A DNA stretch of 64,000 nt from Bacteroidia bacterium. GTDB lineage: Bacteria; Bacteroidota; Bacteroidia; 2-12-FULL-35-15. The notes below the pieces were generated by a model, which had not been told where the DNA came from, did not search any database, and saw only the letters and a list, made by a program, of their open reading frames with translations. The stretch spans positions 197,658-261,657 of the forward strand of contig JBJMLR010000009.1 of the NCBI GenBank assembly GCA_045805205.1, in the 5' to 3' direction. Position numbers and translations under genes: made by a program. Below are positions 18,898 through 32,648 of the stretch, piece after piece; the stretch's first letter is position 1; every line of letters starts with the position of its first letter.

Positions 18898-21714
18898 ATG
18901 CCAAGAGATAATTCCATAAAATCAGTCCTCATCATCGGAAGCGGTCCAATCGTGATCGGACAAGCCTGCGAATTTGACTATTCCGGCTCACAGGCCGCAC
19001 GTTCACTCAGAGAGGAAGGGATCAGGGTAACGCTGATCAACTCCAACCCGGCGACGATCATGACGGATAAAGTAACTGCGGAGAATATTTACCTGCTGCC
19101 GCTGGAAGTGAAGTCCATTGTAAAGATCCTGGAAGAAAACAAAGATATTGATGCGGTGCTGCCGACCATGGGCGGACAGACGGCCCTGAACCTCGCAATG
19201 AAATGCGATGAAATGGGCATCTGGAAGAAATACAATGTGAGAATGATCGGAGTCGATATCGATGCGATCGAGGTGACGGAGGATCGTGATAAATTCCGTG
19301 AGCGAATGGAAAGCATCGGTGTCGGAATGGCACCTTCCAAAATTGCAAAATCATTCCTGGAAGGAAAAGAGATCGCCCAGGACTTCGGTTTTCCATTGGT
19401 GATCCGCCCGTCCTTTACGCTTGGCGGAAGCGGCGGAAGCGTTGTATACCAGAAAGAAGAATTTGATGCAGCATTGAACCGCGGCCTGCACACGTCGCCG
19501 ATCCACGAAGTACTGATCGATAAAGCGGTGCTTGGCTGGAAAGAATTTGAGCTTGAGTTGTTGCGTGATGCGAATGACAACGTTGCGATCATCTGCTCGA
19601 TCGAGAATTTTGATCCGATGGGCGTTCATACCGGCGATAGCATCACGGTTGCTCCGGCAATGACCCTGAGCGATACCACTTACCAGAAGATGCGGACACT
19701 CGCGATCAAAATGATGCGCAGCATCGGAAATTTTGCGGGCGGATGTAATGTTCAGTTTGCGGTAAGCCCTGATGATGCGGAAGACATTATCGCCATCGAG
19801 ATCAATCCGCGTGTATCGCGTTCATCGGCACTGGCGAGTAAAGCAACCGGTTACCCGATCGCTAAGATTGCGTCGAAGCTGGCGATCGGTTATCACCTGG
19901 ATGAGCTGGAAAATCAGATCACCAAATCGACCTCTGCCTATTTTGAGCCGACGCTGGATTATGTCATTGTAAAAATTCCGCGCTGGAACTTTGATAAATT
20001 CAAGGGTGCGAAGCGTGAGCTTGGCTTCCAGATGAAATCGGTTGGCGAGGTAATGGGGATAGGCCGCTGTTTCCAGGAGGCATTACAGAAAGCTTGTCAG
20101 AGCCTTGAGATCAAACGGAATGGCTTGGGTGCAGATGGAAAAGAAGTGAAGAACCAGGATGAATTGCTGAAAAGCCTGGAGCGTCCGAGCTGGAATCGTC
20201 TGTTCCATATTTACGATGCGATCAAATTGGGGATCTCGATCAAAACGATCCAGAAGCTTACACGGATCGATCCGTGGTTTTTGAACCAGATCGAAGAGCT
20301 GATCATTCTTGAAAGCGAAATTTCTAAATACAGATTAGGAGATCTTCCGAAAGACCTGCTCTATGAGGCAAAGCAAAAAGGGTATGCTGACCGCCAGATC
20401 GCACATTTGCTGAATTGCCTCGAAAGTGAAGTATTCAATCGCCGCCGTGATCTGAATATCAATCGCGTTTATAAGCTTGTCGATACCTGTGCAGCGGAAT
20501 TCGAAGCGAAGACACCCTACTATTACAGTACTTTCGAAGATGAGAATGAAAGCATCGCCTCCGACAAGAAGAAGATCGTGGTGTTAGGAAGCGGTCCGAA
20601 CCGCATCGGACAGGGAATTGAATTTGACTACAGCTGTGTGCATGGCGTATTGGCTGCAAAGGAATGCGGCTATGAAACCATTATGATCAATTGCAACCCG
20701 GAAACGGTTTCTACGGATTTCAACGTTGCCGATAAGCTTTATTTCGAACCGGTGTTCTGGGAACATATTTACGATATCATCCTGAACGAAAAGCCGGAAG
20801 GAGTGATCGTTCAGCTGGGCGGACAAACGGCTTTGAAGCTGGCGGAAAAGCTGGAGCGCTATGGCATCAAGATCATCGGAACGGATTTCAAGTCGCTTGA
20901 CCTGGCTGAAGATCGCGGAAGCTTTTCGACTTTGCTGAAAGAAAATAACATTCCGTATCCGGAGTTCGGTGTGATCGAAGATGCGGAGCAGGCGGTGGAG
21001 CTTTCAAGAAAATTAGGATTCCCGCTGCTGGTTCGTCCGAGCTATGTGTTGGGCGGACAAAGCATGAAGATCGTGATCAATGAGCAGGAGCTGGAGCAGC
21101 ACGTTGTAAAACTGTTGCAGGATCACCCGGGCAATAAAGTATTGCTGGATCATTTCCTGGAAGGAGCGATCGAGGCTGAGAGTGATTCGATCTGTGACGG
21201 AAAAGATAATTACATCATCGGGATCATGGAGCACATCGAGCCGGCAGGGATCCACTCCGGAGATTCATACGCTGTTCTTCCTCCATTCGACTTGAGCGAG
21301 AATGTAATGAAGCAGATCGAGCAGCATACAAAAACGATTGCACTTGCTTTGAATACGGTCGGATTGCTGAACATCCAGTTCGCGATCAAAGATGAAGTGG
21401 TATACATCATTGAAGCCAATCCGCGTGCATCGCGTACGGTTCCGTTCATTGCGAAGGCGTATGATGAGCCGTATGTTAACTATGCAACCAAGGTAATGCT
21501 GGGTGCTAAGGTCAAAGACTTCAAATTCAGCCCGACCAAAAAAGGATATGCGATCAAGATCCCGGTATTCTCCTATGAGAAATTCCCGGAGGTGACCAAA
21601 GAGCTGGGGCCTGAAATGAAATCAACCGGTGAAGCGATCTATTTCATTGATGATCTGACGGATGAGTTCTTTCACAATATTTATTCTGAGAGGAATTTGT
21701 ATTTGAGTAAGTAA
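18898..21714 (+). CDS. carB: carbamoyl-phosphate synthase large subunit (short, about 938-aa form)
   Basis: Two ATP-grasp halves (IIGSGPIVIGQACEFDYSGSQA... and VVLGSGPNRIGQGIEFDYSCVH...). The last ~20 codons are duplicated in the downstream tandem array. Confidence 0.9.
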   Translation: MPRDNSIKSVLIIGSGPIVIGQACEFDYSGSQAARSLREEGIRVTLINSNPATIMTDKVTAENIYLLPLEVKSIVKILEENKDIDAVLPTMGGQTALNLAMKCDEMGIWKKYNVRMIGVDIDAIEVTEDRDKFRERMESIGVGMAPSKIAKSFLEGKEIAQDFGFPLVIRPSFTLGGSGGSVVYQKEEFDAALNRGLHTSPIHEVLIDKAVLGWKEFELELLRDANDNVAIICSIENFDPMGVHTGDSITVAPAMTLSDTTYQKMRTLAIKMMRSIGNFAGGCNVQFAVSPDDAEDIIAIEINPRVSRSSALASKATGYPIAKIASKLAIGYHLDELENQITKSTSAYFEPTLDYVIVKIPRWNFDKFKGAKRELGFQMKSVGEVMGIGRCFQEALQKACQSLEIKRNGLGADGKEVKNQDELLKSLERPSWNRLFHIYDAIKLGISIKTIQKLTRIDPWFLNQIEELIILESEISKYRLGDLPKDLLYEAKQKGYADRQIAHLLNCLESEVFNRRRDLNINRVYKLVDTCAAEFEAKTPYYYSTFEDENESIASDKKKIVVLGSGPNRIGQGIEFDYSCVHGVLAAKECGYETIMINCNPETVSTDFNVADKLYFEPVFWEHIYDIILNEKPEGVIVQLGGQTALKLAEKLERYGIKIIGTDFKSLDLAEDRGSFSTLLKENNIPYPEFGVIEDAEQAVELSRKLGFPLLVRPSYVLGGQSMKIVINEQELEQHVVKLLQDHPGNKVLLDHFLEGAIEAESDSICDGKDNYIIGIMEHIEPAGIHSGDSYAVLPPFDLSENVMKQIEQHTKTIALALNTVGLLNIQFAIKDEVVYIIEANPRASRTVPFIAKAYDEPYVNYATKVMLGAKVKDFKFSPTKKGYAIKIPVFSYEKFPEVTKELGPEMKSTGEAIYFIDDLTDEFFHNIYSERNLYLSK

Positions 21715-22000
21715 TTACAGCGCGTCATTGCGAGTGAGCTAGCGAACGAAGCAATCTGTCGTTTGATTTGACGGATAAGTTCTTTCATAATATTTATTCC
21801 CAAAGGAATTTGTGCCAGAGTAAATAAAATGCCCGTCATCCTGAGCGGAGTCGAAGGAGGGCCTTTTAGCGAACGAAGCAATCTCATCGTTTGATCTGAT
21901 GGATAAGTTCTTTCATGACATTTATTCCAAAAGGAATTTGTATCCGGGTAAATAATTACAGCGCGTCATTGCGAGTGAGTTAGCGAACGAAGCAATCTTA
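21648..22000. repeat. ~113-128-bp tandem repeat x3. Each unit is a copy of the carB 3' end (~20 codons plus stop) followed by the dispersed cgtcattgcgag...cgaagcaatc element.
   Basis: Units translate to DLTDEFFHNIYSERNLYLSK*, FDLTDKFFHNIYSQRNLCQSK* and FDLMDKFFHDIYSKRNLYPGK*. The first unit is the real carB terminus. Confidence 0.85.
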
Positions 22001-22262
22001 TTATAGTGATATTATAAAATGGAAAAAGGTCGGAGGGGATTCCTTCTTTGCCAAAGGTTTTTGGCGGATGAAGGGGTCCTATTTCGTGTGCTGTTGTCTC
22101 TTATAGTGTCTGTCACCACTGCCAGTAAAGATTTAGGCTATCCGAGAGGCGGACTTTTATAACAATTGGATTTGCAAGGCCAAGCCAAGTTAACACAAAA
22201 GCATCTTTGTAGTACGAAATCTTGCCTTTTGAGTAGTGCCGTTACTAATAGTTACTCTTTCT

Positions 22263-23633
22263 TCATTTCTTTTCTTTTATCAATTCCGTAACCTCGTTCG
22301 CTATTATTTTAATATTTTCTGGCTTTAAAACATTTTTAATAGAATCAGATATTTCTTCGTGTGGTGATTTTAGTTTAAGAAATGTGTCAATACCTTTAGA
22401 TGGGTTTGTATTTAATTGGTCTCTCAATGAATTAAACAATTCCATATACTCTGCGTCTTTATGTTCTAAACTGTACAATTCTCTGTATCCAGTCATTGCA
22501 GCAGCAATTGATGCTTTATGATGATATTCTTCAGCAAGTTTTTTTGCAATCTTTTGATTTCTATTTAGCATCCAAATTGCAAATATAAGCGCACCCGCAA
22601 TGCTAAATTGATAAATGAGAAGGTGATAATTGAACTCTTTGCCGCACAACAATAGAATTAACTGCGCTACTCCAAATGCAACAATGTCAGCAATTAACCA
22701 ATTTGTCAGGTTTAATGTTTTATTTTCTAGAGTTTGAAATTCTTTAGTGTATTCTTTTGCCCGTTCAGCAAAAGCATTGTGTAATGAGCTATCTGTTAAG
22801 GCAAGTAGCTTTTGTTCGGCATCAGTTGTTAATTTGCCTAATCTGTTAGCTAATGATTCAACAGTTGCTTTTAGTCCAAGCCCTTCCGTTTCTGTTTCTT
22901 CATCGACAACTTTTTCAAACACAGCTTTATAAAAGCTTCTTAATTTTTTTACTTCTTTTTCGTTTTCAGTTAAGTTTTTATTGAAATCATCTTTAATTTT
23001 GATAATTTGAGTTTTTACTGAATCTCTCCCTTCTTCATCTTCTAATAACAGTTTTTGTGCGGCAATAAGCTCAGTATGTTTACTTTCAATACCGGTATTT
23101 AATTTTTGTGAATCTGCAATCAGAGCAGTAGCTTCAGCAACAAGATTATTTAGACTAGCCTTTGTCGATTCTTTCCCGTCGATACCAATTAATGTTTCCG
23201 TTTTAAATTGATCAACATCGATTTTTACATTTAGGATTTGGGCTTTTATTGATTCTCTTCCTTCTTCACTTTCTAATAAAAGCTTGTGAGCAGAAACAAT
23301 CTCTTCCCGTTTGGCTTTAATATCAATAAGTGCTTCATTAATTACTTTTCTTGTTGATGGGTTTTCTTCTGTACCCACTAAGGTTTCGTTTTTGAATTTT
23401 TCAGCCTCTTCTTTTACTTCTTTTAATATTTGCTGGTCTATACCGGCTTTTACAATTACATTCTTAAATATAGTTTGATTAGATAAATGCTCACCCTCGT
23501 CAACTAAATTCTCTTTATAAAATATGCTGAGTTTGTCAATTTGAGCTTGAATAGCTTTAGTTTTTTTCGTTGTTTCGGTTATTAAAGCAAGAAGTTCTTC
23601 TCTTGTCAGTTCAGGACTATTTTTATCTTCCAT
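22263..23633 (-). CDS. repeat-rich coiled-coil protein with a C-proximal two-helix membrane hairpin (island gene A)
   Basis: 456 aa. About 300 aa of heptad-rich sequence with internal ~65-aa repeats (HKLLLESEEGRESIKAQI and QKLLLEDEEGRDSVKTQI). Two TM helices (WLIADIVAFGVAQLILLLCG and LLIYQFSIAGALIFAIWML). Strongly AT-rich DNA. Confidence 0.5.
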   Translation of the reverse strand: MEDKNSPELTREELLALITETTKKTKAIQAQIDKLSIFYKENLVDEGEHLSNQTIFKNVIVKAGIDQQILKEVKEEAEKFKNETLVGTEENPSTRKVINEALIDIKAKREEIVSAHKLLLESEEGRESIKAQILNVKIDVDQFKTETLIGIDGKESTKASLNNLVAEATALIADSQKLNTGIESKHTELIAAQKLLLEDEEGRDSVKTQIIKIKDDFNKNLTENEKEVKKLRSFYKAVFEKVVDEETETEGLGLKATVESLANRLGKLTTDAEQKLLALTDSSLHNAFAERAKEYTKEFQTLENKTLNLTNWLIADIVAFGVAQLILLLCGKEFNYHLLIYQFSIAGALIFAIWMLNRNQKIAKKLAEEYHHKASIAAAMTGYRELYSLEHKDAEYMELFNSLRDQLNTNPSKGIDTFLKLKSPHEEISDSIKNVLKPENIKIIANEVTELIKEKK

Positions 23634-23726
23634 TTTTATTTAGTTAATTTTAATTCGTTGCTTAAATGTTGAAGGGTTTGCGCAATTATCTACAGCGTTT
23701 CGCGGGCTGGCGCTCGGGCGGTCTTG

Positions 23727-24680
23727 TCATTGCGGTAGTATGTCATTTAGCTTGTCCGCAAACTCTTTTGAATCAGATACTTTTATTGGTTTGATAGTTA
23801 CTTCTTTGTTTTCTTTGTTGAAGTCGCTTATATGTTGAGCAACTAAAGGTGTCAAGTCGGTATTATAAACCAACCAAGCTTCTCCATTTTTGTTTTTAAG
23901 ATAATGTGCTAACTGATGAAATGTATTTAACCCAATTTTACTTCTACTCAGATATTTTGCTTCGATAAAGTACCGTTTATTGTTTTTCAAAAATATTAGA
24001 TCAATCCCTTTGTCCTCAAAATCATTGTTTTGAATGTCTAAGTCGGGGCGATTTCTTAATGCAGCCTCAATACTTTTTTCAAACTCAAAACTATATTCAT
24101 GTGTATCTTTGCTTGAAGAAATGTCTTGGATTTCGTTTTGAATTTCTGCATCCTTGTCTTTATCGGATTTGTATTTGAAAAAAGTGCTGATTAGTCCTAA
24201 TATTACAGTCGCTATTGCAAAAATCGTTGATAACAATTCAAGCCACCAAGTTTCTTTAGATTCGGCGTTTTGATTTTTAATTTTGGGGTTGAATTCTTTT
24301 GGCAACTGTAATTTGATTCGTTCAATTTTGTTTATCAGTTCCTTTCTTTTGGTCAATGGAAGAAATTTGTCCTCCATAAAAGATTCTTCGGTCTTTGTAA
24401 GGATGTCGTCTAGTGAAAGCGGAAAGCTTTGTTTTAGTGTAATTTCTTTAGCGTGAACAAGTGTCGGCAATTCATTAAGCGTAAATGTGGAATCTGAATA
24501 AATAAGTTCTTTGACTGATTGCAAAATTTCGCTCTCAGCATTTTTAATTCTTTCGTTCTGCGATTCTTGTAGCCAAGTCGGAACATACCAAACACCTATA
24601 TAAATGGTCGCAAAAAAACCAAGTATGCTAAATACTGTCCCGAAGTTTGTAAACCATTCTTTAAGTGTCTTTGTATTCAT
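23727..24680 (-). CDS. membrane-anchored protein with a C-terminal PD-(D/E)xK (restriction-endonuclease-like) fold motif (island gene B)
   Basis: 317 aa. TM helices at about 14-36 and about 148-170. The C-terminal GIDLIFLKNNKRYFIEAKYLS fits the hD...hExK core of Mrr/NERD-type nuclease domains. Confidence 0.4.
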   Translation of the reverse strand: MNTKTLKEWFTNFGTVFSILGFFATIYIGVWYVPTWLQESQNERIKNAESEILQSVKELIYSDSTFTLNELPTLVHAKEITLKQSFPLSLDDILTKTEESFMEDKFLPLTKRKELINKIERIKLQLPKEFNPKIKNQNAESKETWWLELLSTIFAIATVILGLISTFFKYKSDKDKDAEIQNEIQDISSSKDTHEYSFEFEKSIEAALRNRPDLDIQNNDFEDKGIDLIFLKNNKRYFIEAKYLSRSKIGLNTFHQLAHYLKNKNGEAWLVYNTDLTPLVAQHISDFNKENKEVTIKPIKVSDSKEFADKLNDILPQ

Positions 24681-24857
24681 AATATTCTACGTGTTGAATG
24701 ATCAACTATTGTTGCTGGTAACGTTTCGCGGCTTGGTGTTCGTTCGGGTTTTTAACTAAAATCATTTTTGCGAAGCCGAATTTTAAGATATTCAAATTTG
24801 TCTTGTGAAGCGAGATGCCCGTAAAGCGCAACGACCGCTGTCATAGGCAGGCAAATG

Positions 24858-26045
24858 TTAGAATGGCAAGCCATCATCTTTGTCTTCCGAAATGTCTACC
24901 GGCATCCATGGATATTTTTCAGTGTCAGTGATAAAATTTCTGGAAGAATTTGTAAATGTGCCCCAAAACTCTACTGGAGTTTCTTCATCAAAATCTGTTT
25001 CGAAAACATTCCCGTCTAATTCTAAGTAGAGGCTTTCTCCTTGTTTTTTGAATCTGCAAGTCACAACTTCAATTAATTTCCCTCTAGCCAAATTGTCTTC
25101 CTTGATTAAGGCTATTTCTTTTGATATTTGCAGCAACACCTTTTCTAATTCTGTTTTGATGACAGCGTAGTTTTTTTCGAGAGATTTTCTGCTAAATGTA
25201 AATCTTATTTGTTTTGTCAATACCACGCTTTCTGGCGTTTTAGTATAAGACGTGGGTGTGGCCTCGGTTACAGAAATTGTATGTTTTGATATTTCAGGAT
25301 ATCCAATAAGAATTTCGTCAGTTTTTAGATTAACAGTTTTTATTGAATACCCCAAAAAGCTTTTTTGTCGTTGTAGTATTGGTGACACAAATGATATAAT
25401 TAACTTAATCCATTCTTCTTTTTTGCTTTGTTTAAAAGTCACCTTACATTCCTCGATTCCCAATGTTACTATTTCCTTATACCAATTTTCCTCAGTATTT
25501 GTTGGCACAGTGTCTGGGCAAGTATAAAAGTCTCGCATCATTTTTTCAATTTCTGATAAGGTGTGAATCGAATTTTGCTTAACTAAGTCGATGTCTCCTT
25601 TTTTTATAGGTCTAAAATGAGCTAAGGAATTCCTCACATTACCAATTTCATCGAGTTTGTTTTTCATGATTTCTCTTGAACCCAAGAAATAGTTTTTGAA
25701 AAACTTCCAATATGCGTCTGAAGTAATTATTCTTATAAGCTCCCCACTCGTCAAGTGGAGTAACGGACTATTAATAACATAACCGAGGTAGGCGTAATTT
25801 TTGTCTTGCGAGAGCCGCTTTTTCGCGATAGCGCCAAGAGTCGAAGTTTCTGCATCATCGCTCGTTATTGAAAGATCTTTCCATTTATCTTGAAATTCAC
25901 TTTTCAGAATTATGAAGACGAAAACCCTTAAGGAATTTTCAATTCTGAATAAAATATTAAGCGCTTCAAAGTATTCAATCTTTAACCAATCCCCTGGCAG
26001 GTCATATAAATTCTTTTCAGTGTTTTTAGCTTCTTTCCAATCCAT
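24858..26045 (-). CDS. HEPN-domain protein, Abi_2 (AbiD/AbiF)/Swt1-like (island gene C)
   Basis: 395 aa. The alpha-helical N-terminal ~160 aa end in IGNVRNSLAHFRPI, an R-x4-H HEPN motif of the RN..AH type seen in Abi_2/Swt1 families. The size is similar to AbiD/AbiF. AT-rich. Confidence 0.4.
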   Translation of the reverse strand: MDWKEAKNTEKNLYDLPGDWLKIEYFEALNILFRIENSLRVFVFIILKSEFQDKWKDLSITSDDAETSTLGAIAKKRLSQDKNYAYLGYVINSPLLHLTSGELIRIITSDAYWKFFKNYFLGSREIMKNKLDEIGNVRNSLAHFRPIKKGDIDLVKQNSIHTLSEIEKMMRDFYTCPDTVPTNTEENWYKEIVTLGIEECKVTFKQSKKEEWIKLIISFVSPILQRQKSFLGYSIKTVNLKTDEILIGYPEISKHTISVTEATPTSYTKTPESVVLTKQIRFTFSRKSLEKNYAVIKTELEKVLLQISKEIALIKEDNLARGKLIEVVTCRFKKQGESLYLELDGNVFETDFDEETPVEFWGTFTNSSRNFITDTEKYPWMPVDISEDKDDGLPF

Positions 26046-26340
26046 CTTTCTATTTGTTTAGTTTGCTTGCCTATAAATTTCTTACTAACCGCAACTCACA
26101 CGCAATCCCACTGCATTTCAATAAATTAATACTCGTATAGAAGCGGATATAAAACGGGTAGAAACGTTTCTACACGGCTATAGAATTAAATCAATTCCAA
26201 TAAATTGACAGGAGGGAGTAGCTCGAATCGTATAGCTAAAATATAATAATTTCCGAAATGCGCAATGTTTATGCCAGCGAATAGGTAAAAACACCTATTA
26301 GAAGAGGAGCAAAATATCGATGTGCGCAGCTTATCATCGC

Positions 26341-26395
26341 CATGGTGAGATTGCTTCGTTCGCTACACTCACTCGCAATGACGCGCTGCAATGAA
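26341..26395. repeat. dispersed ~37-bp element (gattgcttcgttcgctacactcactcgcaatgacgcg), an inverted copy of the elements at 21720-21998
   Basis: About 36 of 38 nt identical to the reverse complement of 21962-21998. It explains the spurious LLRSL..AMTRCN ORFs at 21681-21887 and 26342-26584. Confidence 0.8.
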
Positions 26396-26433
26396 TCGCC
26401 TGGAGCTCTTTTTTCTTACTGCGTTTCCCAACC

Positions 26434-26997
26434 TTACTCTTTTTCTTCCGGAGCAAAATCGACTGAAACATCCTTGATCTTTTCATCCGGACCAAAAGCC
26501 AGGATCATCGATCGGATGGGACTGGATTCATTAGCATTTGTTATCGTCAGATACGTGGACAAAGCCAAAGATCCACCGCTCTGATCCCGGCAGGAATAGG
26601 ATTGCGGATATTTGCCGGCAAATTCGGAAAGGGACCAGGAGGGATCCAATACCACCTGCTCGTCCGAAAGGAATTTCACACCATTGTTGTGCAGGATATT
26701 CAGACTGGTCAGATACATCGCCTCACGGGAATCTCCATAGCTTATTTCAGTTTCCTCCGGATCGATGTATTTCATGGAATCCGGGCTCATTTTGAATTTA
26801 ATTGGTTTTGCAAAACCTTCAATGAGCAGCTGATCAAGCGGCAATGCATCAAATGTACAGGTGCCTGCGGCAAGTTTTTCCATTCGTTCTCTTTCCTGCT
26901 GCTTGTTGTTCTCTACCGAAGTCAATCCTTTGTACACAAGAAAGATGACAAGTCCCAGGATAAAAATTATGATGAATGCTTTCTTGAAGAGTTTCAT
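26434..26997 (-). CDS. hypothetical membrane-anchored protein
   Basis: 187 aa. N-terminal TM (FIIIFILGLVIFLVY). No recognised motif. Confidence 0.45.
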   Translation of the reverse strand: MKLFKKAFIIIFILGLVIFLVYKGLTSVENNKQQERERMEKLAAGTCTFDALPLDQLLIEGFAKPIKFKMSPDSMKYIDPEETEISYGDSREAMYLTSLNILHNNGVKFLSDEQVVLDPSWSLSEFAGKYPQSYSCRDQSGGSLALSTYLTITNANESSPIRSMILAFGPDEKIKDVSVDFAPEEKE

Positions 26998-27202
26998 GGG
27001 TATCCGTTTGCGAATAAAGATAGTAAATAGAACGCGGATGACACAGAAAACGCGGATCTACACGGATCTGTTTATCGTAATGATTCACCGAGCGGATTGT
27101 ATTTGCTTACGGATCGATTCGTACTGACAAGAATAGAAAAGCAATCTCCTTACTACAAAGAGATTGCTTTTCCGCCGGTCGCAGATCGTAATAGCGAAAG
27201 TT

Positions 27203-27694
27203 CTAGCTCTTCGTCAGCATTACATCCAGACTGTCGAGCGTCATTGTAAATCCTTCTTTAAAGCCCATTTCAATCATTTTTTCCATGCGTTCGAGACTAT
27301 CATTGTAAATGGAGATGTGCACTTTTGTTTTCCCGTTTTGTTCGCTGAAAGTCAGGTTCCAGTCAGAACCCGGTAAATGAAGATTTTCATCTTTGTCGGC
27401 GAAAACGCTCAGGAATTTGAAATTGCTCTTCGGGGTAATGGATGTGTATTTCTGGACCTGCCAGCCTTCGTTGCCTTCCGGACTTACCATTGCATAGAAT
27501 CGCCGGTCGCCCACCTCGAAGTTCATGTGCTTTGTTTTTGAGAGATAGGGTTTTGGTGCCCACCATTGATCAAGAATTTCAGGTTTGGTGAAAGCATCCC
27601 ATACCAGCGGGAGCTCCGCATTAAATTCGCGGTTAATGGATACCGTTTTTGTTGCTTTGTCGACAGTGAAGTCAAAGAGTGATGTGTTTTTCAT
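27203..27694 (-). CDS. SRPBCC-superfamily protein (AHSA1 / activator of Hsp90 ATPase-like)
   Basis: 163 aa. The [22 protein letters not shown] pattern is typical of the AHSA1 (PF08327) domain. Confidence 0.75.
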
Positions 27695-27898: not shown

Positions 27899-28396
27899 TT
27901 ACCGTTTCGCCAGCATTGTATCCAGGTTTTCCATCGCCATTGTAAGACCTTCCTTGAAGCCCATTTTGAGTGTAGCTTCCAGCTGAGCGAGGTCAGGATA
28001 GTTGATGATGCCTTCCACCAAGGTATTCTGGCCCATTTCTTTGAAATTCATGATCCATTTAGACTGCGGCATTTCAGGGTTGATCTTTCCATTGGAATCG
28101 CAGAATGCGTCATTGGCTGTGAATTTATTCATCGGTTCGATCTTTTCGTAGTTGGTGACCGACCAATGTTCTTCGCCATTGGGTCCTACTGCGGCGTACA
28201 GCCATTTGCCGCCTTCACGGAAATCCTGGCTCTTTGTTTTTGCTTTCCATGGTTTCGGCATCCACCATTGATCAAGGATCTTATGATCAGTATATGCTTC
28301 CCAGACCGTTGCGCGGTCCGCTGCAAATTCCCGTTGAATGGTGATCACGTTGTGTGTTTTGTCGACATTGAAGTCGAAGAATAATGTTTTGCTCAT
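27899..28396 (-). CDS. SRPBCC-superfamily protein (AHSA1-like), paralog
   Basis: 165 aa. ATVWEAYTDHKILDQWWMPKPW. Confidence 0.75.
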   Translation of the reverse strand: MSKTLFFDFNVDKTHNVITIQREFAADRATVWEAYTDHKILDQWWMPKPWKAKTKSQDFREGGKWLYAAVGPNGEEHWSVTNYEKIEPMNKFTANDAFCDSNGKINPEMPQSKWIMNFKEMGQNTLVEGIINYPDLAQLEATLKMGFKEGLTMAMENLDTMLAKR

Positions 28397-28534: not shown

Positions 28535-28852
28535 TTATTTCTTCTTTTTTAATGTGAACAGCACTTCATCCAGCTGGTTAAATTTGTCTTCCCACATTTT
28601 GCGGAACTGTTCGATCCATTTATCGATCTCTTTCATTTTGTTAATCTCTAGTGTATAGTATATTTCTCTGCCAACTTGTTCCTGGGTAACGACTTCACAT
28701 TCAGCAAGGATCTGCAGGTGCTTTGAAACCGCCTGGCGGCTGGTATTGAAATGTTCAGCCAGCGCGTTGGGTGTCATGGCATTCAGTGCGATCAGTGTAA
28801 TGATGGCTCTGCGGGTTGGATCGGCAATGGCCTGGAAGATGTCTCGTCTCAT
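28535..28852 (-). CDS. ArsR/SmtB-family transcriptional regulator
   Basis: [19 protein letters not shown] ... [21 protein letters not shown] (wHTH of the ArsR family). Confidence 0.8.
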
Positions 28853-29786: not shown

Positions 29787-30206
29787 CTATTTCTCTTCGC
29801 CTGTAAGATGTCCTTCCTCAAATAAGAGGGTCCGCAGCACCATGCCATTCTGATCTTTGATGTATTTCTTACCCGACCAGAGCGCTCCGTTTTTGTATGA
29901 ACCTTCTTCATCCGGAACATGCTCCGGATCGGGCTGCTGCTTCATGGCTTTTGTTTTCGGATCCCATTCTCCTTTGTAGATCTTATTTTCGAATGCCAGC
30001 ACACAAATGGTATTATGCTGGCTGTCCATGTACCTAACATAGCCGTTCACAAGTGAATCGCAGCGGAAGATCCCCTGCTCAAGGATAATGCAGTCGCTGT
30101 CGCTGGTCAGGCGTTTGCTGTCTCCATTTCTGCCGCGGCATCCTTGTGCAAAAGCAGCGCCTGTGACGAGAGAGAATAATAGGATCAATTTTATATTTTT
30201 CATCAT
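29787..30206 (-). CDS. hypothetical secreted protein
   Basis: Likely starts at MMKNIKLILLFSLVTGAAFAQ (signal peptide). The ORF-track start at 30260 is probably too long. Confidence 0.35.
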   Translation of the reverse strand: MMKNIKLILLFSLVTGAAFAQGCRGRNGDSKRLTSDSDCIILEQGIFRCDSLVNGYVRYMDSQHNTICVLAFENKIYKGEWDPKTKAMKQQPDPEHVPDEEGSYKNGALWSGKKYIKDQNGMVLRTLLFEEGHLTGEEK

Positions 30207-30327
30207 GGCGATATATATTTCTGTCGGAAGAAGAGATTGCTGAATTGCTTTACATAACAAGTGCTCTCGATGACGGCGCGATCTTCTTTAATCAAATATA
30301 AGGAAAGGGAATAAGAAAAAGAAGCGT

Positions 30328-30513
30328 TTATTTGATCTCCTCAAAATCCACATACTCACCTTCCTCTGCTATCGGATTTTTCTTTTTGGAGGCCGGCTCG
30401 GAATCTGTAGCAGGTCCCGGAGAGTCGTTCCGGCGGGGCCGCATGGAATTAACGCCGTCCATGATCCGGTAAAGGATCCAGACTACTAATATGGTATAAA
30501 AGACGTCGCGCAT
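30328..30513 (-). CDS. small membrane protein (DUF4834-like: N-terminal TM, acidic C-terminus ending YVDFEEI)
   Basis: 61 aa. TM helix FYTILVVWILYRIM. C-terminus EEGEYVDFEEIK. Confidence 0.35.
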   Translation of the reverse strand: MRDVFYTILVVWILYRIMDGVNSMRPRRNDSPGPATDSEPASKKKNPIAEEGEYVDFEEIK

Positions 30514-30547
30514 CGGATTGCAAAGTTAATCAGAATATGGTAGTTAT

Positions 30548-30605
30548 TTATTGTGATAATTAATTAATGTGATAATTAGGATAATTTGGTAATTAGTTAA
30601 TGGAG
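30548..30605. repeat. AT-rich degenerate tandem repeat (GTGATAATTA variant)
   Basis: ttgtgataattaattaatgtgataattaggataatttggtaattagttaatgg. Confidence 0.7.
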
Positions 30606-30917
30606 TAATCGAAAAGTACAGCTGTAATGCCTACGCTTAAAGGATTCCACTGCCATCGTCAGGCATGGCAGGATATAGCTCTGCAAAAAGAAACTGAATG
30701 CCTTAATTCTTAACAGAGAAATTGAATTAAAAGACCTGATTTTTAACGTTTTTGGCGAAGAAAAGCTTGTATCTAGAGTGTTTTTAAATGAAGTAGATAT
30801 CGCCAATTATTTCCCAGAATTCCAATCCGAGTCATATATACAAGGATATACTGGATAGTTTTCCCACGTGATTTCTACCTGCTTTTTACTATCTTTCGGA
30901 TAGCAAAAAACAACTCC

Positions 30918-31778
30918 ATGAACTTATTTAGTAAAGAAAACCCTTTTGTTGAGAGAGCAAAATCTCCTCTATATGGGACTTTTATCGTTTCATGGTTAAT
31001 ATGGAATTGGAGAATTGTTCTTACGGTCTTATTCCTTTCCAAGTCCGACTTTCATGGGTTCACTTTAGTTGAGTACATCGCCAATCATTACTTGCATTTC
31101 TGCAATATTTTGTTCGTCCCGTTGTTATTTACTGCCCTTTATTTATTTGCACTGCCTCACATTGATTACTACATATTGAGTTATACTGAAGAAAGAAAAA
31201 GAAGGAGAATAGACAAAAAAATGAAAATCCTAGGTAGTCACTCCGTGAGCGGTAGAGATTACAATGACTTGCTTTTTAAATATGATGCAGAAAGAAAAAA
31301 GATAATTACTATTCAACAGGAATTAACAACCGCCAATACAGAATTAGTTGGTACAAAAAACAAGCTTGAGGGACAAATCAACTCATATAATCAGCTAAAA
31401 ACGATTATAGATACTCACGAAGCGTCGTTAACTAGGCTTAGAAACCGACATCAATCGTCAGGTTTTTTTAATGGCAGATGGAAGAGGGAAGCAAAGTCGG
31501 GAACTCAGGTGTCAGAGCAAGAAGTTAGCATCCAAGCAAATGATTATTACCGTGTCAAGAATCGCGAAAACAAACAAACTCATATACTGGAATTAGTTAA
31601 TTTTGATCCTGATCGAGCTGATTTGGAATTTGCAAAGGTGTCAGTTGATAACACAGAAATTACTATATGCAAATTAAAAATTGTTGGCGACAACGTGGTA
31701 GAAGGAACCGAAGGAAAAGAAGTCGTGACTTATACGCGAAATAAGTATCAACAACAAGATCAACATACTAAAGTATAG
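30918..31778 (+). CDS. hypothetical membrane protein with a coiled-coil segment (AT-rich islet)
   Basis: 286 aa. Two N-terminal TM helices, then a coiled-coil (ITIQQELTTANTELVGTKNKLEGQINSYNQLKTIID). AT-rich DNA flanked by GTGATAATTA-type repeats. Confidence 0.45.
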   Translation: MNLFSKENPFVERAKSPLYGTFIVSWLIWNWRIVLTVLFLSKSDFHGFTLVEYIANHYLHFCNILFVPLLFTALYLFALPHIDYYILSYTEERKRRRIDKKMKILGSHSVSGRDYNDLLFKYDAERKKIITIQQELTTANTELVGTKNKLEGQINSYNQLKTIIDTHEASLTRLRNRHQSSGFFNGRWKREAKSGTQVSEQEVSIQANDYYRVKNRENKQTHILELVNFDPDRADLEFAKVSVDNTEITICKLKIVGDNVVEGTEGKEVVTYTRNKYQQQDQHTKV

Positions 31779-31853
31779 AGTTGCGTTGACTCAGTTCAGA
31801 TATAATTCCCCTACCTAATTATCAAATCCTGATTATCACATTCTCTAATTATT

Positions 31854-32648
31854 TCAATCCTTCGTCATCTTCCGCATCAGCCTATAAAACATCTTAGGGA
31901 AATAATGTTTTACATACACGGAAAAGATTTCGTACTTACCAACATATTTATGATCGCGGTTGCTTTTTACAGCAGAGATAATTCCTTTTGCGCAATCCAT
32001 GGCCGACATCCCTTTTTCCTGCGCTTCGCTTTTTACTCCATAGGGCGAACCATCTTCTTTTAAAAGCTTTGTGCTCACATCGGTATTAATGAAACCGGGT
32101 GTGGCGATCAATACTTTTACATTGTCTTTGTAGAGCTCTTGCCGTAAAGATTCAAACCATCCGAACAATGCATGTTTGGAAGCAGAATAAGTGGAGTAGA
32201 GCGGAAGTCCGTATTTACCCATGATGCTGGTAACAACCACCAGTTTACCTTCCTGCTGTTTCTGCATCACTTTCGCGACCGCCTTTGTCAGATTGATCGT
32301 TCCGAAAAAATTAATTTCCATCACTTTGCGATCCACTTCAGTTGGCGTATTTACCGCTTTTGTACGGTGTCCCATTCCGCTGTTATTGATCAGCACATCG
32401 ATACGGCCGAATTTTTTCAAAACAGCCTCCACCTTTTCCTGGATATTTTCGGTGTGTTCAAGATCGAGCGGGAGAACAAAAATATTTTCGAAAGGGATCC
32501 TGCAGGCAGCTGCAACACGCTCCAGCTCACCTTCGCGGCGCGCAGAAAGAACAAGCTTTGCACCCTCCGAAGCGCTCACGTAGGCAAGCGCTTCACCAAT
32601 TCCTGATGATGCGCCGGTGATCCAGATGATTTTGTCTTTGAGGTTCAC
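31854..32648 (-). CDS. SDR-family short-chain dehydrogenase/reductase
   Basis: TGASSGIG cofactor motif, NNSG and the catalytic YSASK (Y-x3-K). Confidence 0.85.
   Translation of the reverse strand: MNLKDKIIWITGASSGIGEALAYVSASEGAKLVLSARREGELERVAAACRIPFENIFVLPLDLEHTENIQEKVEAVLKKFGRIDVLINNSGMGHRTKAVNTPTEVDRKVMEINFFGTINLTKAVAKVMQKQQEGKLVVVTSIMGKYGLPLYSTYSASKHALFGWFESLRQELYKDNVKVLIATPGFINTDVSTKLLKEDGSPYGVKSEAQEKGMSAMDCAKGIISAVKSNRDHKYVGKYEIFSVYVKHYFPKMFYRLMRKMTKD

Follow-up and report, generated by a model that had tools for sequence, protein, structure and literature searches.

A Bacteroidota family of predicted membrane-anchored Mrr-type nucleases carried as single-gene cassettes

The stretch of DNA analyzed here (hereafter the window) comprises 64,000 nt of contig JBJMLR010000009.1 of a Bacteroidia bacterium, and the subject of this study is its gene B, which encodes a predicted membrane-anchored nuclease. 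Gene B lies inside an island of 33–36% G+C at approximately 22000–26000, against a surrounding background of 42–50%, and this low-GC island follows directly downstream of a 938-aa open reading frame (ORF) at 18898–21714, which we take, judging from its sequence alone, to be carB. The coordinates given for gene B by the original prediction, a model's reading of the letters and ORF list, were found to hold, and the minus-strand ORF with its ATG start and 317 aa is real. Its features are the following, where TM stands for transmembrane.

23727–24680, minus strand: gene B ORF, 317 aa plus stop, ATG start (ORF list)
24573–24644, minus strand: TM helix 1, residues 13–36 (hydropathy, AlphaFold2 helix and column counts)
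24249–24572, minus strand: inter-TM helical domain, residues 37–144, predicted to be extracytoplasmic (alignments, AlphaFold2)
24171–24248, minus strand: TM helix 2, residues 145–170 (hydropathy, AlphaFold2 and column counts)
24114–24170, minus strand: juxtamembrane linker helix, residues 171–189, with a conserved E179-I-x-N182 (alignments, AlphaFold2)
23730–24113, minus strand: predicted Mrr_cat-type PD-(D/E)xK nuclease domain, residues 190–317 (AlphaFold2, Foldseek and Pfam in relatives)
24078–24080, minus strand: codon of E201, the acidic residue in helix alpha-1 (alignment and AlphaFold2 domain model)
24000–24002, minus strand: codon of D227, just before strand 2 (alignment and AlphaFold2 domain model)
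23955–23963, minus strand: codons of E240-A241-K242, the ExK of strand 3 (alignment and AlphaFold2 domain model)

The C-terminal domain had been predicted to carry a D...ExK signature of an Mrr/restriction-endonuclease-like fold, and structure prediction bore this out. AlphaFold2 gave a pLDDT of 78 on the full B alignment, and a pLDDT of 93.3 with a pTM of 0.87 on the nuclease domain alone. The domain model has the topology alpha1-beta1-beta2-beta3-alpha2-beta4-alpha3-beta5-alpha4, in which residues 190–209 (helix), 215–217, 228–232 and 235–242 (strands), 251–261 (helix) and 266–272 (strand) form the alpha-beta-beta-beta-alpha-beta core. The motif peptide GIDLIFLKNNKRYFIEAKY (residues 225–243, window 23952–24008) falls at strands 2 and 3 of this model and not in a helix, with D227 right before beta2 and E240-A-K242 in beta3. 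The signature as first read was incomplete, since a conserved E201 in alpha1 completes it to E...D...ExK. All high-probability Foldseek matches in the PDB were PD-(D/E)xK proteins, including Cdn1, Rpb5, MspJI, AspBHI, Can2, XisH, DdmD, Hjc and MUS81, with a probability of 1.0 for MspJI, Rpb5, Cdn1 and Can2, and among the BFVD viral models the matches were phage "restriction endonuclease" proteins (E 8e-5 to 1e-3). Searching the domain profile against PDB sequences returned weak but consistent matches to Rpb5 (1e-3), SfsA, Hjc and the Mrr-like AF1548. A domain-only profile was required for this, as the full-length B sequence or profile found coiled-coil noise only (MCU, Ccm) in the PDB; the domain profile gave nothing further in a word-indexed search.

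The sequence link to Mrr, which had also been anticipated, was obtained from the relatives of B. The window protein itself produced TM-driven noise only and no family against Pfam, NCBIfam, PADLOC and PHROGs, and is too divergent for the Pfam threshold, having no match to Mrr_cat at E<=1. Among 32 relatives, 11 matched Pfam Mrr_cat (best E 1.3e-6) and four matched Hjc, and PF04471 is present in the precomputed annotation of relatives P0012, P0015 and P0037. Two distant relatives, P0197 (30.6 bits) and P0199 (22.3 bits), scored above the Mrr_cat (PF04471) gathering threshold of 21 bits. With P0201, these two, the first of them archaeal, make up a distant branch that has a similar first TM helix and helical domain and extra TM helices.

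The motif is more than a chance occurrence, because D227 and E240 are conserved at >=90% and K242 is invariant in the close relatives (n=32). In the distant representatives, D227 was found in 114/124, E240 in 97/122, K242 in 104/122 and E201 in 109/126, and the full E-D-E-K set, which is also complete in window B, was kept in 80/122. The deviations, in approximately a third of these representatives, are mostly at E240 or K242, and part of them possibly reflects alignment error at ~20% identity. An active effector or a sensor with an inactivated nuclease fold had both been suggested; the former is the better fit for window B with its full tetrad, while about a third of the distant representatives depart from it. 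By modelled fold and active site, the C-terminal domain is placed in the Mrr_cat branch of PD-(D/E)xK. It shares with Mrr/type IV enzymes (PF04471), MspJI/AspBHI and archaeal Hjc the E in alpha-1, the D at beta-2, the ExK in beta-3 and an N/T-T motif after beta-4. What sets B apart from these is a membrane module in place of any domain for DNA recognition or modification reading, as neither a winged helix nor an SRA is present.

The two TM helices of this module, as originally predicted, are evident: Kyte-Doolittle 19-residue windows exceed 1.4 only at residues 10–37 and 143–171, and the long AlphaFold2 helices (residues 13–62 and 142–187) agree with them. Mean pairwise identity within the family is 44% in TM1, 36% in residues 86–124 and 20% in the nuclease domain; the 2TM plus helical module is the conserved core of the family, more conserved than the nuclease. 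TM1, the most conserved segment, has a small-residue stripe of S/G18, G21, T25 and G/S29 together with Y27, Y32 and P34, and TM2 has small-residue positions at S151, G/S155, S/A159, G162 and S165. Such stripes are typical of tightly packed or channel-forming helices, and those of B suggest tight helix packing or oligomerization. The inter-TM domain is predicted to be helical at residues 70–82, 90–103 and 109–124, and its conserved residues are E58, K78, E79, L94, F101, P108, L109 and R112, with a motif SFMEDKFLPLxKRxEL. It matched no Pfam, NCBIfam, PADLOC or PHROG family, and in Foldseek the inter-TM part of the model gave low-probability matches only (YiiP, GPCRs). B represents a family that is as yet uncharacterised and has a conserved membrane module of a novel type.

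The pairing of this module with the nuclease holds in the great majority of the family. In relative P0163, a TIR_2 domain (E 2.7e-17) replaces the nuclease after TM2, and in P0177 a PNP_UDP_1 phosphorylase domain (E 7e-18) does so, while P0085 and P0165 have the module joined to C-termini without an assigned family. Two metagenomic proteins show the B-type nuclease domain in other company: in P0159 it stands after a multi-TM and HEPN region, and in P0200 after a TIR domain, with the four catalytic residues replaced by V, T, F and R, which hints that the B-type domain is able to serve a non-catalytic role. Domain shuffling of this kind is typical of conflict systems, and it favours a module that would regulate a toxic effector over a purely passive anchor. 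The exchange of REase, TIR and PNP_UDP_1 on a constant partner module is shared with CBASS-, Thoeris- and Pycsar-type effectors; in B, however, the constant part is a membrane module in the same polypeptide and not a SAVED, CARF or cNMP domain, and no signal-producing enzyme was linked to B in 18 loci.

The exchanges also bear on the orientation of B. K/R is conserved at positions 11, 169 and 171, the latter two directly following TM2; behind TM1, position 39 holds a conserved acidic residue, and the N terminus is net positive. Because TIR and PNP_UDP_1 enzymes use cytoplasmic substrates, a C terminus that accepts them would be cytoplasmic. From the conserved charges together with the TIR and PNP domains swapped in after TM2, we infer that B probably has an N-in/loop-out/C-in topology that places its nuclease tail in the cytoplasm.

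The working model that we propose runs as follows. B would sit in the inner membrane, with its N terminus and nuclease on the cytoplasmic side and the ~110-residue inter-TM helical domain facing outward. The 2TM plus helical module would anchor and regulate the enzyme, probably as an oligomer packed via the small-residue TM stripes, would respond to an envelope-level event in phage infection, and would then release or activate the cytoplasmic effector; the nuclease would cut DNA without sequence specificity. Since the family travels as a one-gene cassette in the company of phage-defence genes, B is most likely a compact anti-phage nuclease. That it works as a membrane module controlling a cytoplasmic, non-specific Mrr-type nuclease on an envelope-level infection cue, for defence against phages and other mobile genetic elements, is held with a confidence about midway between doubt and acceptance.

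The conservation pattern could also be read with the TM helices as the effector, holin-like or pore-forming and depolarizing, and the nuclease fold as a DNA-binding sensor or an oligomerization platform. TM1, with its stripe, is the most conserved segment and TM2 is similar; some relatives have weak holin-family matches, roughly one representative in three departs from the catalytic tetrad, and P0200 joins a TIR domain to a B-type domain lacking all four catalytic residues. The TM part of Epona, a published system treated in the next paragraph, has moreover been described as a holin domain (10.1101/2024.07.02.601686). Nevertheless, the holin matches lie far under family thresholds (E ~0.01), the full catalytic set is retained in 80 of the 122 representatives and in nearly all close relatives, and TIR and PNP, classic toxic effectors, fit a regulating module better when swapped in. 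A pore as the effector is thus regarded as unlikely.

A membrane-tethered PD-(D/E)xK domain had been called unusual in the original prediction, which was an overstatement, as SNIPE and Epona are already published anti-phage systems. Epona is a Vibrio cholerae superintegron cassette, a single gene with Mrr_cat and a two-TM 'holin' domain, which is anti-phage in E. coli (Darracq et al., 10.1101/2024.07.02.601686) and was reported to be almost restricted to V. cholerae (10.1101/2024.07.02.601686). Compared by description only, the two have in common an Mrr_cat domain and two TM helices in one cassette-borne protein, and on that footing Epona is the closest published analogue of B. They differ in that the B family is found in Bacteroidota and Ignavibacteria, the ~110-aa inter-TM domain of B is unmentioned for Epona, and the B profile search gave only 161 representatives, mostly of B architecture.

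SNIPE (PD-lambda-1) is a single-polypeptide, cytoplasmic-facing inner-membrane nuclease with anti-phage activity (Saxton et al., Nature 2026, PMC13190303), composed of one TM helix (N-out), DUF4041 and a GIY-YIG nuclease (PMC13190303), and its membrane sequestration prevents self-cleavage (PMC13190303). B resembles it as a predicted membrane-anchored single-polypeptide nuclease, probably also on the cytoplasmic side, and differs in that its two TM helices enclose a novel helical loop domain and are followed by a PD-(D/E)xK nuclease. Neither DUF4041 nor GIY-YIG had a Pfam match in B, nor was either among the matches listed for the 32 relatives. The two are not homologous, and SNIPE is a functional analogue with unrelated domains. 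The resemblance raises the possibility that B is a constitutively competent nuclease at the inner face, cutting only DNA that enters by injection or conjugation, with the N-terminal module as a targeting adaptor. Membrane anchoring of a non-specific nuclease is the very logic of SNIPE (PMC13190303), the catalytic residues of window B are intact, and B is likewise a single-gene system in defence contexts. The conservation, however, is opposite: in SNIPE the nuclease is most and the N-terminal region least conserved, while in B it is the membrane module that is best conserved. Further, the TIR and PNP domains that replace the nuclease in relatives cannot act on incoming DNA, and no DUF4041-like DNA/tape-measure-binding domain was found in B or among the matches listed for relatives. 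This possibility is therefore tentative and, on balance, rather unlikely, and a module that gates its effector is preferred.

The family was searched for in several collections. Among 5.8 billion proteins, a protein identical to B was recorded in a Bacteroidia metagenome-assembled genome (MAG), along with 56 more full-length homologues of 313–333 aa and 37–86% identity. Searching 1.84 billion representative proteins exhaustively with a profile gave just 161 relatives at E <= 0.001, nearly all of them 300–335 aa, aligned end to end and of the same architecture as B. Scanning 185,579 species (one genome per species) found 15 B loci, in Chitinophagaceae, Flavobacterium, Saccharicrinis, Draconibacterium, Algibacter, Seonamhaeicola, Mucilaginibacter, Tenacibaculum, other Bacteroidota and one Ignavibacteria MAG. 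Where the source of a relative is named, it almost always falls in Bacteroidota or Ignavibacteria, an exception being the distant P0197 in an archaeal Candidatus Methanoperedens MAG, and no match was found in plasmid and phage collections. The B family is thus small and sporadic.

The neighbourhoods of B were then compared all-against-all in 18 loci (17 distinct), and every ORF flanking B formed a singleton cluster. Even an 81%-identical homologue in a Chitinophagaceae MAG has neighbours entirely different from those of the window. Because no flanking ORF recurs, B is regarded as a stand-alone single-gene unit. In the window, B lies between two same-strand genes of the island. Gene A (24858–26045, minus strand) encodes 395 aa that begin with a Swt1-like HEPN domain (motif RNSLAH; E 7e-5 in Pfam, under the cut-off), matches the PADLOC candidate PDC-M34B at 2.6e-10, and seems to start at its own GTTAGTAAG boundary at 26081–26092; it is probably a separate defence cassette. 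Gene C (22263–23633, minus strand) encodes 456 aa, in which, by eye, a long coiled coil at the N terminus precedes two hydrophobic segments and a tail of ~80 aa; the protein had no significant family and only a weak match to PHROG 34659 (4.5e-5). The adjacency of the three genes on one strand of one low-GC island, and the rare P0159 protein, which fuses TM helices, HEPN and a B-type nuclease domain, would be in line with B being a subunit of a three-gene system with A (HEPN) and C (coiled-coil 2TM). Neither A, C nor any other gene recurs beside B in the 18 loci, though, and the 177-nt A-B spacer ends at a cassette boundary (below). An A-B-C operon was accordingly rejected, and the three-gene system is largely refuted and highly improbable.

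Within ~5 kb of B relatives we found GmrSD, Mrr_cat, type I restriction-modification, AbiH, Abi_alpha, ABC-3C components and HNH, as well as DndB, a Dam-type methylase, Lamassu LmuA/LmuB, HEC-05 and several PADLOC PDC candidates. With regard to Shedu (SduA), B had neither a DUF4263 nor a PADLOC Shedu match, and DUF4263 was absent among the 25 of 115 Pfam families listed for relatives. That B could have a non-immune role, as a selfish cassette-stabilizing toxin or a membrane nuclease for DNA uptake or turnover, would agree with the abundance of toxin-antitoxin modules in cassette arrays, among them HigB/HTH and Gp49/HTH at the L032 locus. On the other side, no antitoxin-like partner is conserved in the 18 loci, the sporadic occurrence (15 loci in 185,579 species genomes) argues against housekeeping, and the neighbours are mostly defence genes; such a role is consequently quite improbable.

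Several observations weigh against a membrane-gated, catalytically active defence nuclease. Window B itself has no significant match to Pfam Mrr_cat, PADLOC or NCBIfam, and the deviating tetrads mean that some family members may do without catalysis. The positive-inside bias over the whole flanks is weak (5.7 versus 5.1 K+R), alternative effectors are rare, with two confirmed among the 161 representatives, and the defence neighbourhood amounts to a listing across various loci. Promoter and terminator scans around B stayed at chance level, and no promoter was identified.

The surroundings of B also revealed how the gene moves. The features concerned are the following.

24711–24722, minus strand: 5′ cassette boundary G|TTACCAGCAAC, shared with three other genomes, similarity ending 5′ of GTT
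24716–24850, minus strand: probable degenerate attC-like site between A and B, similar at its ends (GACAGCGGTCGTT ... CCAAGCCGCGAAACGTTA) to the site that follows B in locus L006
23690–23721, minus strand: truncated 3′ half of a putative attC-like site after the B stop (GCCAGCCCGCGAAACGCTGTAG; repeat D5), a direct repeat of the A-B spacer 3′ end

Just upstream of the start codon of B, a G|TTACCAGCAA(C/T)A is common to the window and loci L014, L015 and L016. The four share GTTACCAGCAA and have nothing in common 5′ of GTT, and the GTT-to-ATG stretch of window B matches the homologous cassettes in these three other genomes. A marine subgroup of four loci (L008, L024, L025 and L026) shares GTTCTATGCAATCTGA, with the boundary G|TTCTATGCAATCTGA, and here a ~127-nt element comes after B, with ..AAC at its start and CGTT.. 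at its end. The same element stands after unrelated same-strand ORFs, in 4 copies in L008, 3 in L025 and 2 in L026. For 8 copies a long-range stem is predicted, and compensatory changes were observed in 11 of its 22 pairs. A second sequence family of attC-like sites occurs in soil and freshwater loci (2 copies in L006, and in L015, L016 and L020). Together with the lack of partner genes, this indicates that the B family moves as a single-gene, horizontally mobile cassette. Neither this mobility nor the conservation and effector exchange of the membrane module formed part of the original prediction.

Within the window, the firm cassette evidence is the shared 5′ boundary. The A-B spacer is 177 nt long and ends at this boundary, and its likeness to the L006 site is at the ends only. 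A hidden Markov model built without the window's own sequence found no attC-like site in the window, the short 3′ terminal motif of the site occurs there at chance frequency, and a single strand of the A-B spacer folds no better than shuffles (z = +1.29); an Rfam scan of 21000–27500 gave no matches. The island looks like a fossil cluster of three cassettes.

In L008 and L023, a ~390-aa tyrosine recombinase is located upstream of the array in the same orientation, and in L006 a remnant of it lies directly upstream of B; no recombinase is present within the 64-kb window. A canonical integron integrase was considered for the recombinase and rejected: the L008 protein scores below the NCBIfam cut-offs (TIGR02249, 190.7 < 265; NF040815, 214.7 < 220), and only 57 aa separate GRKDR from HTLRH, so that the IntI-specific insertion is missing. 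Xer-like ~390-aa recombinases of this type form at least 7851 clusters at E<=1e-20 in Flavobacteriaceae. Downstream of the recombinase lie same-strand arrays in which small, unrelated ORFs alternate with ~127-nt attC-like sites (..AAC ... GTT..) with covarying stems, as seen in L008 (1822–7805), L032 (10001–21000) and L033 (Tamlana fucoidanivorans CP074074.1, 10001–21000). L033 contains 8 attC-like sites downstream of the recombinase and 0 in the 10 kb upstream. The cassettes include toxin-antitoxin modules, PLDc and methylases, with HigB/HTH and Gp49/HTH in L032.

Compared with integron cassettes, the B relatives show the same promoterless-looking single ORFs in one orientation, ~127-nt imperfect palindromes with covarying stems, a G|TT crossover, an adjacent tyrosine recombinase, and toxin-antitoxin modules and defence genes among the cassettes. 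They are different in that the B-linked recombinase lacks the IntI-specific insertion, falls below integron-integrase cut-offs and is co-oriented with the cassettes, and the window itself has no recombinase and degenerate sites. Integrons were described as almost absent from Bacteroidetes in the IntegronFinder 2.0 paper (PMC9024848), and the Flavobacteriaceae recombinase arrays may represent an under-recognised integron-like platform. A bolder and rather doubtful proposal is that the module is an undescribed membrane infection sensor that would gate an Mrr-type nuclease, TIR or PNP in one polypeptide, spread in Bacteroidota by an integron-like platform with attC-like sites and an Xer-like recombinase without the IntI-specific domain, largely missed by current integron finders.

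If the proposed mechanism is true, B would be a minimal one-protein immune device that couples an envelope-side signal to a cytoplasmic nuclease, with an effector swappable for TIR or PNP. It would offer a tractable model of how phages are sensed at the membrane, a process that is still poorly understood even in the case of Zorya, Kiwa and SNIPE, and would extend to Bacteroidota the recent finding of compact defence genes stored in integron cassettes. If B is merely another membrane-tethered nuclease, it would add only modestly to a familiar theme. Greater novelty lies in the membrane module that swaps effectors and in the integron-like platform for cassettes. The results point to a large recombinase family with cassette arrays in a phylum reported to be nearly integron-free (PMC9024848).

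Repeats were also observed at the edges of the island. Between 21646 and 22010, the final 69 nt of the ORF that ends at 21714 occur three times in tandem (21646–21714, 21759–21827 and 21887–21955) at 77–87% identity. A REP-like element GTCATTGCGAGTGAG..AGCGAACGAAGCAATC comes after every copy, and an inverted copy of this element lies at 26336–26404. The low-GC island is bracketed by ~68-nt inverted repeats that are 84% complementary. The repeats suggest repeated insertion events at the 3′ end of the presumed carB, which is named by sequence only.

Beyond the island, the flanking content is ordinary: two paralogous AHSA1/SRPBCC-type ORFs (Pfam AHSA1) lie at 27203–27694 and 27899–28396 (minus strand), and beside this pair a 105-aa ORF at 28535–28852 (minus strand) resembles an HTH regulator by eye. 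A second G+C dip occurs at 30001–32000 (0.40 and 0.36), ~5 kb past the island.

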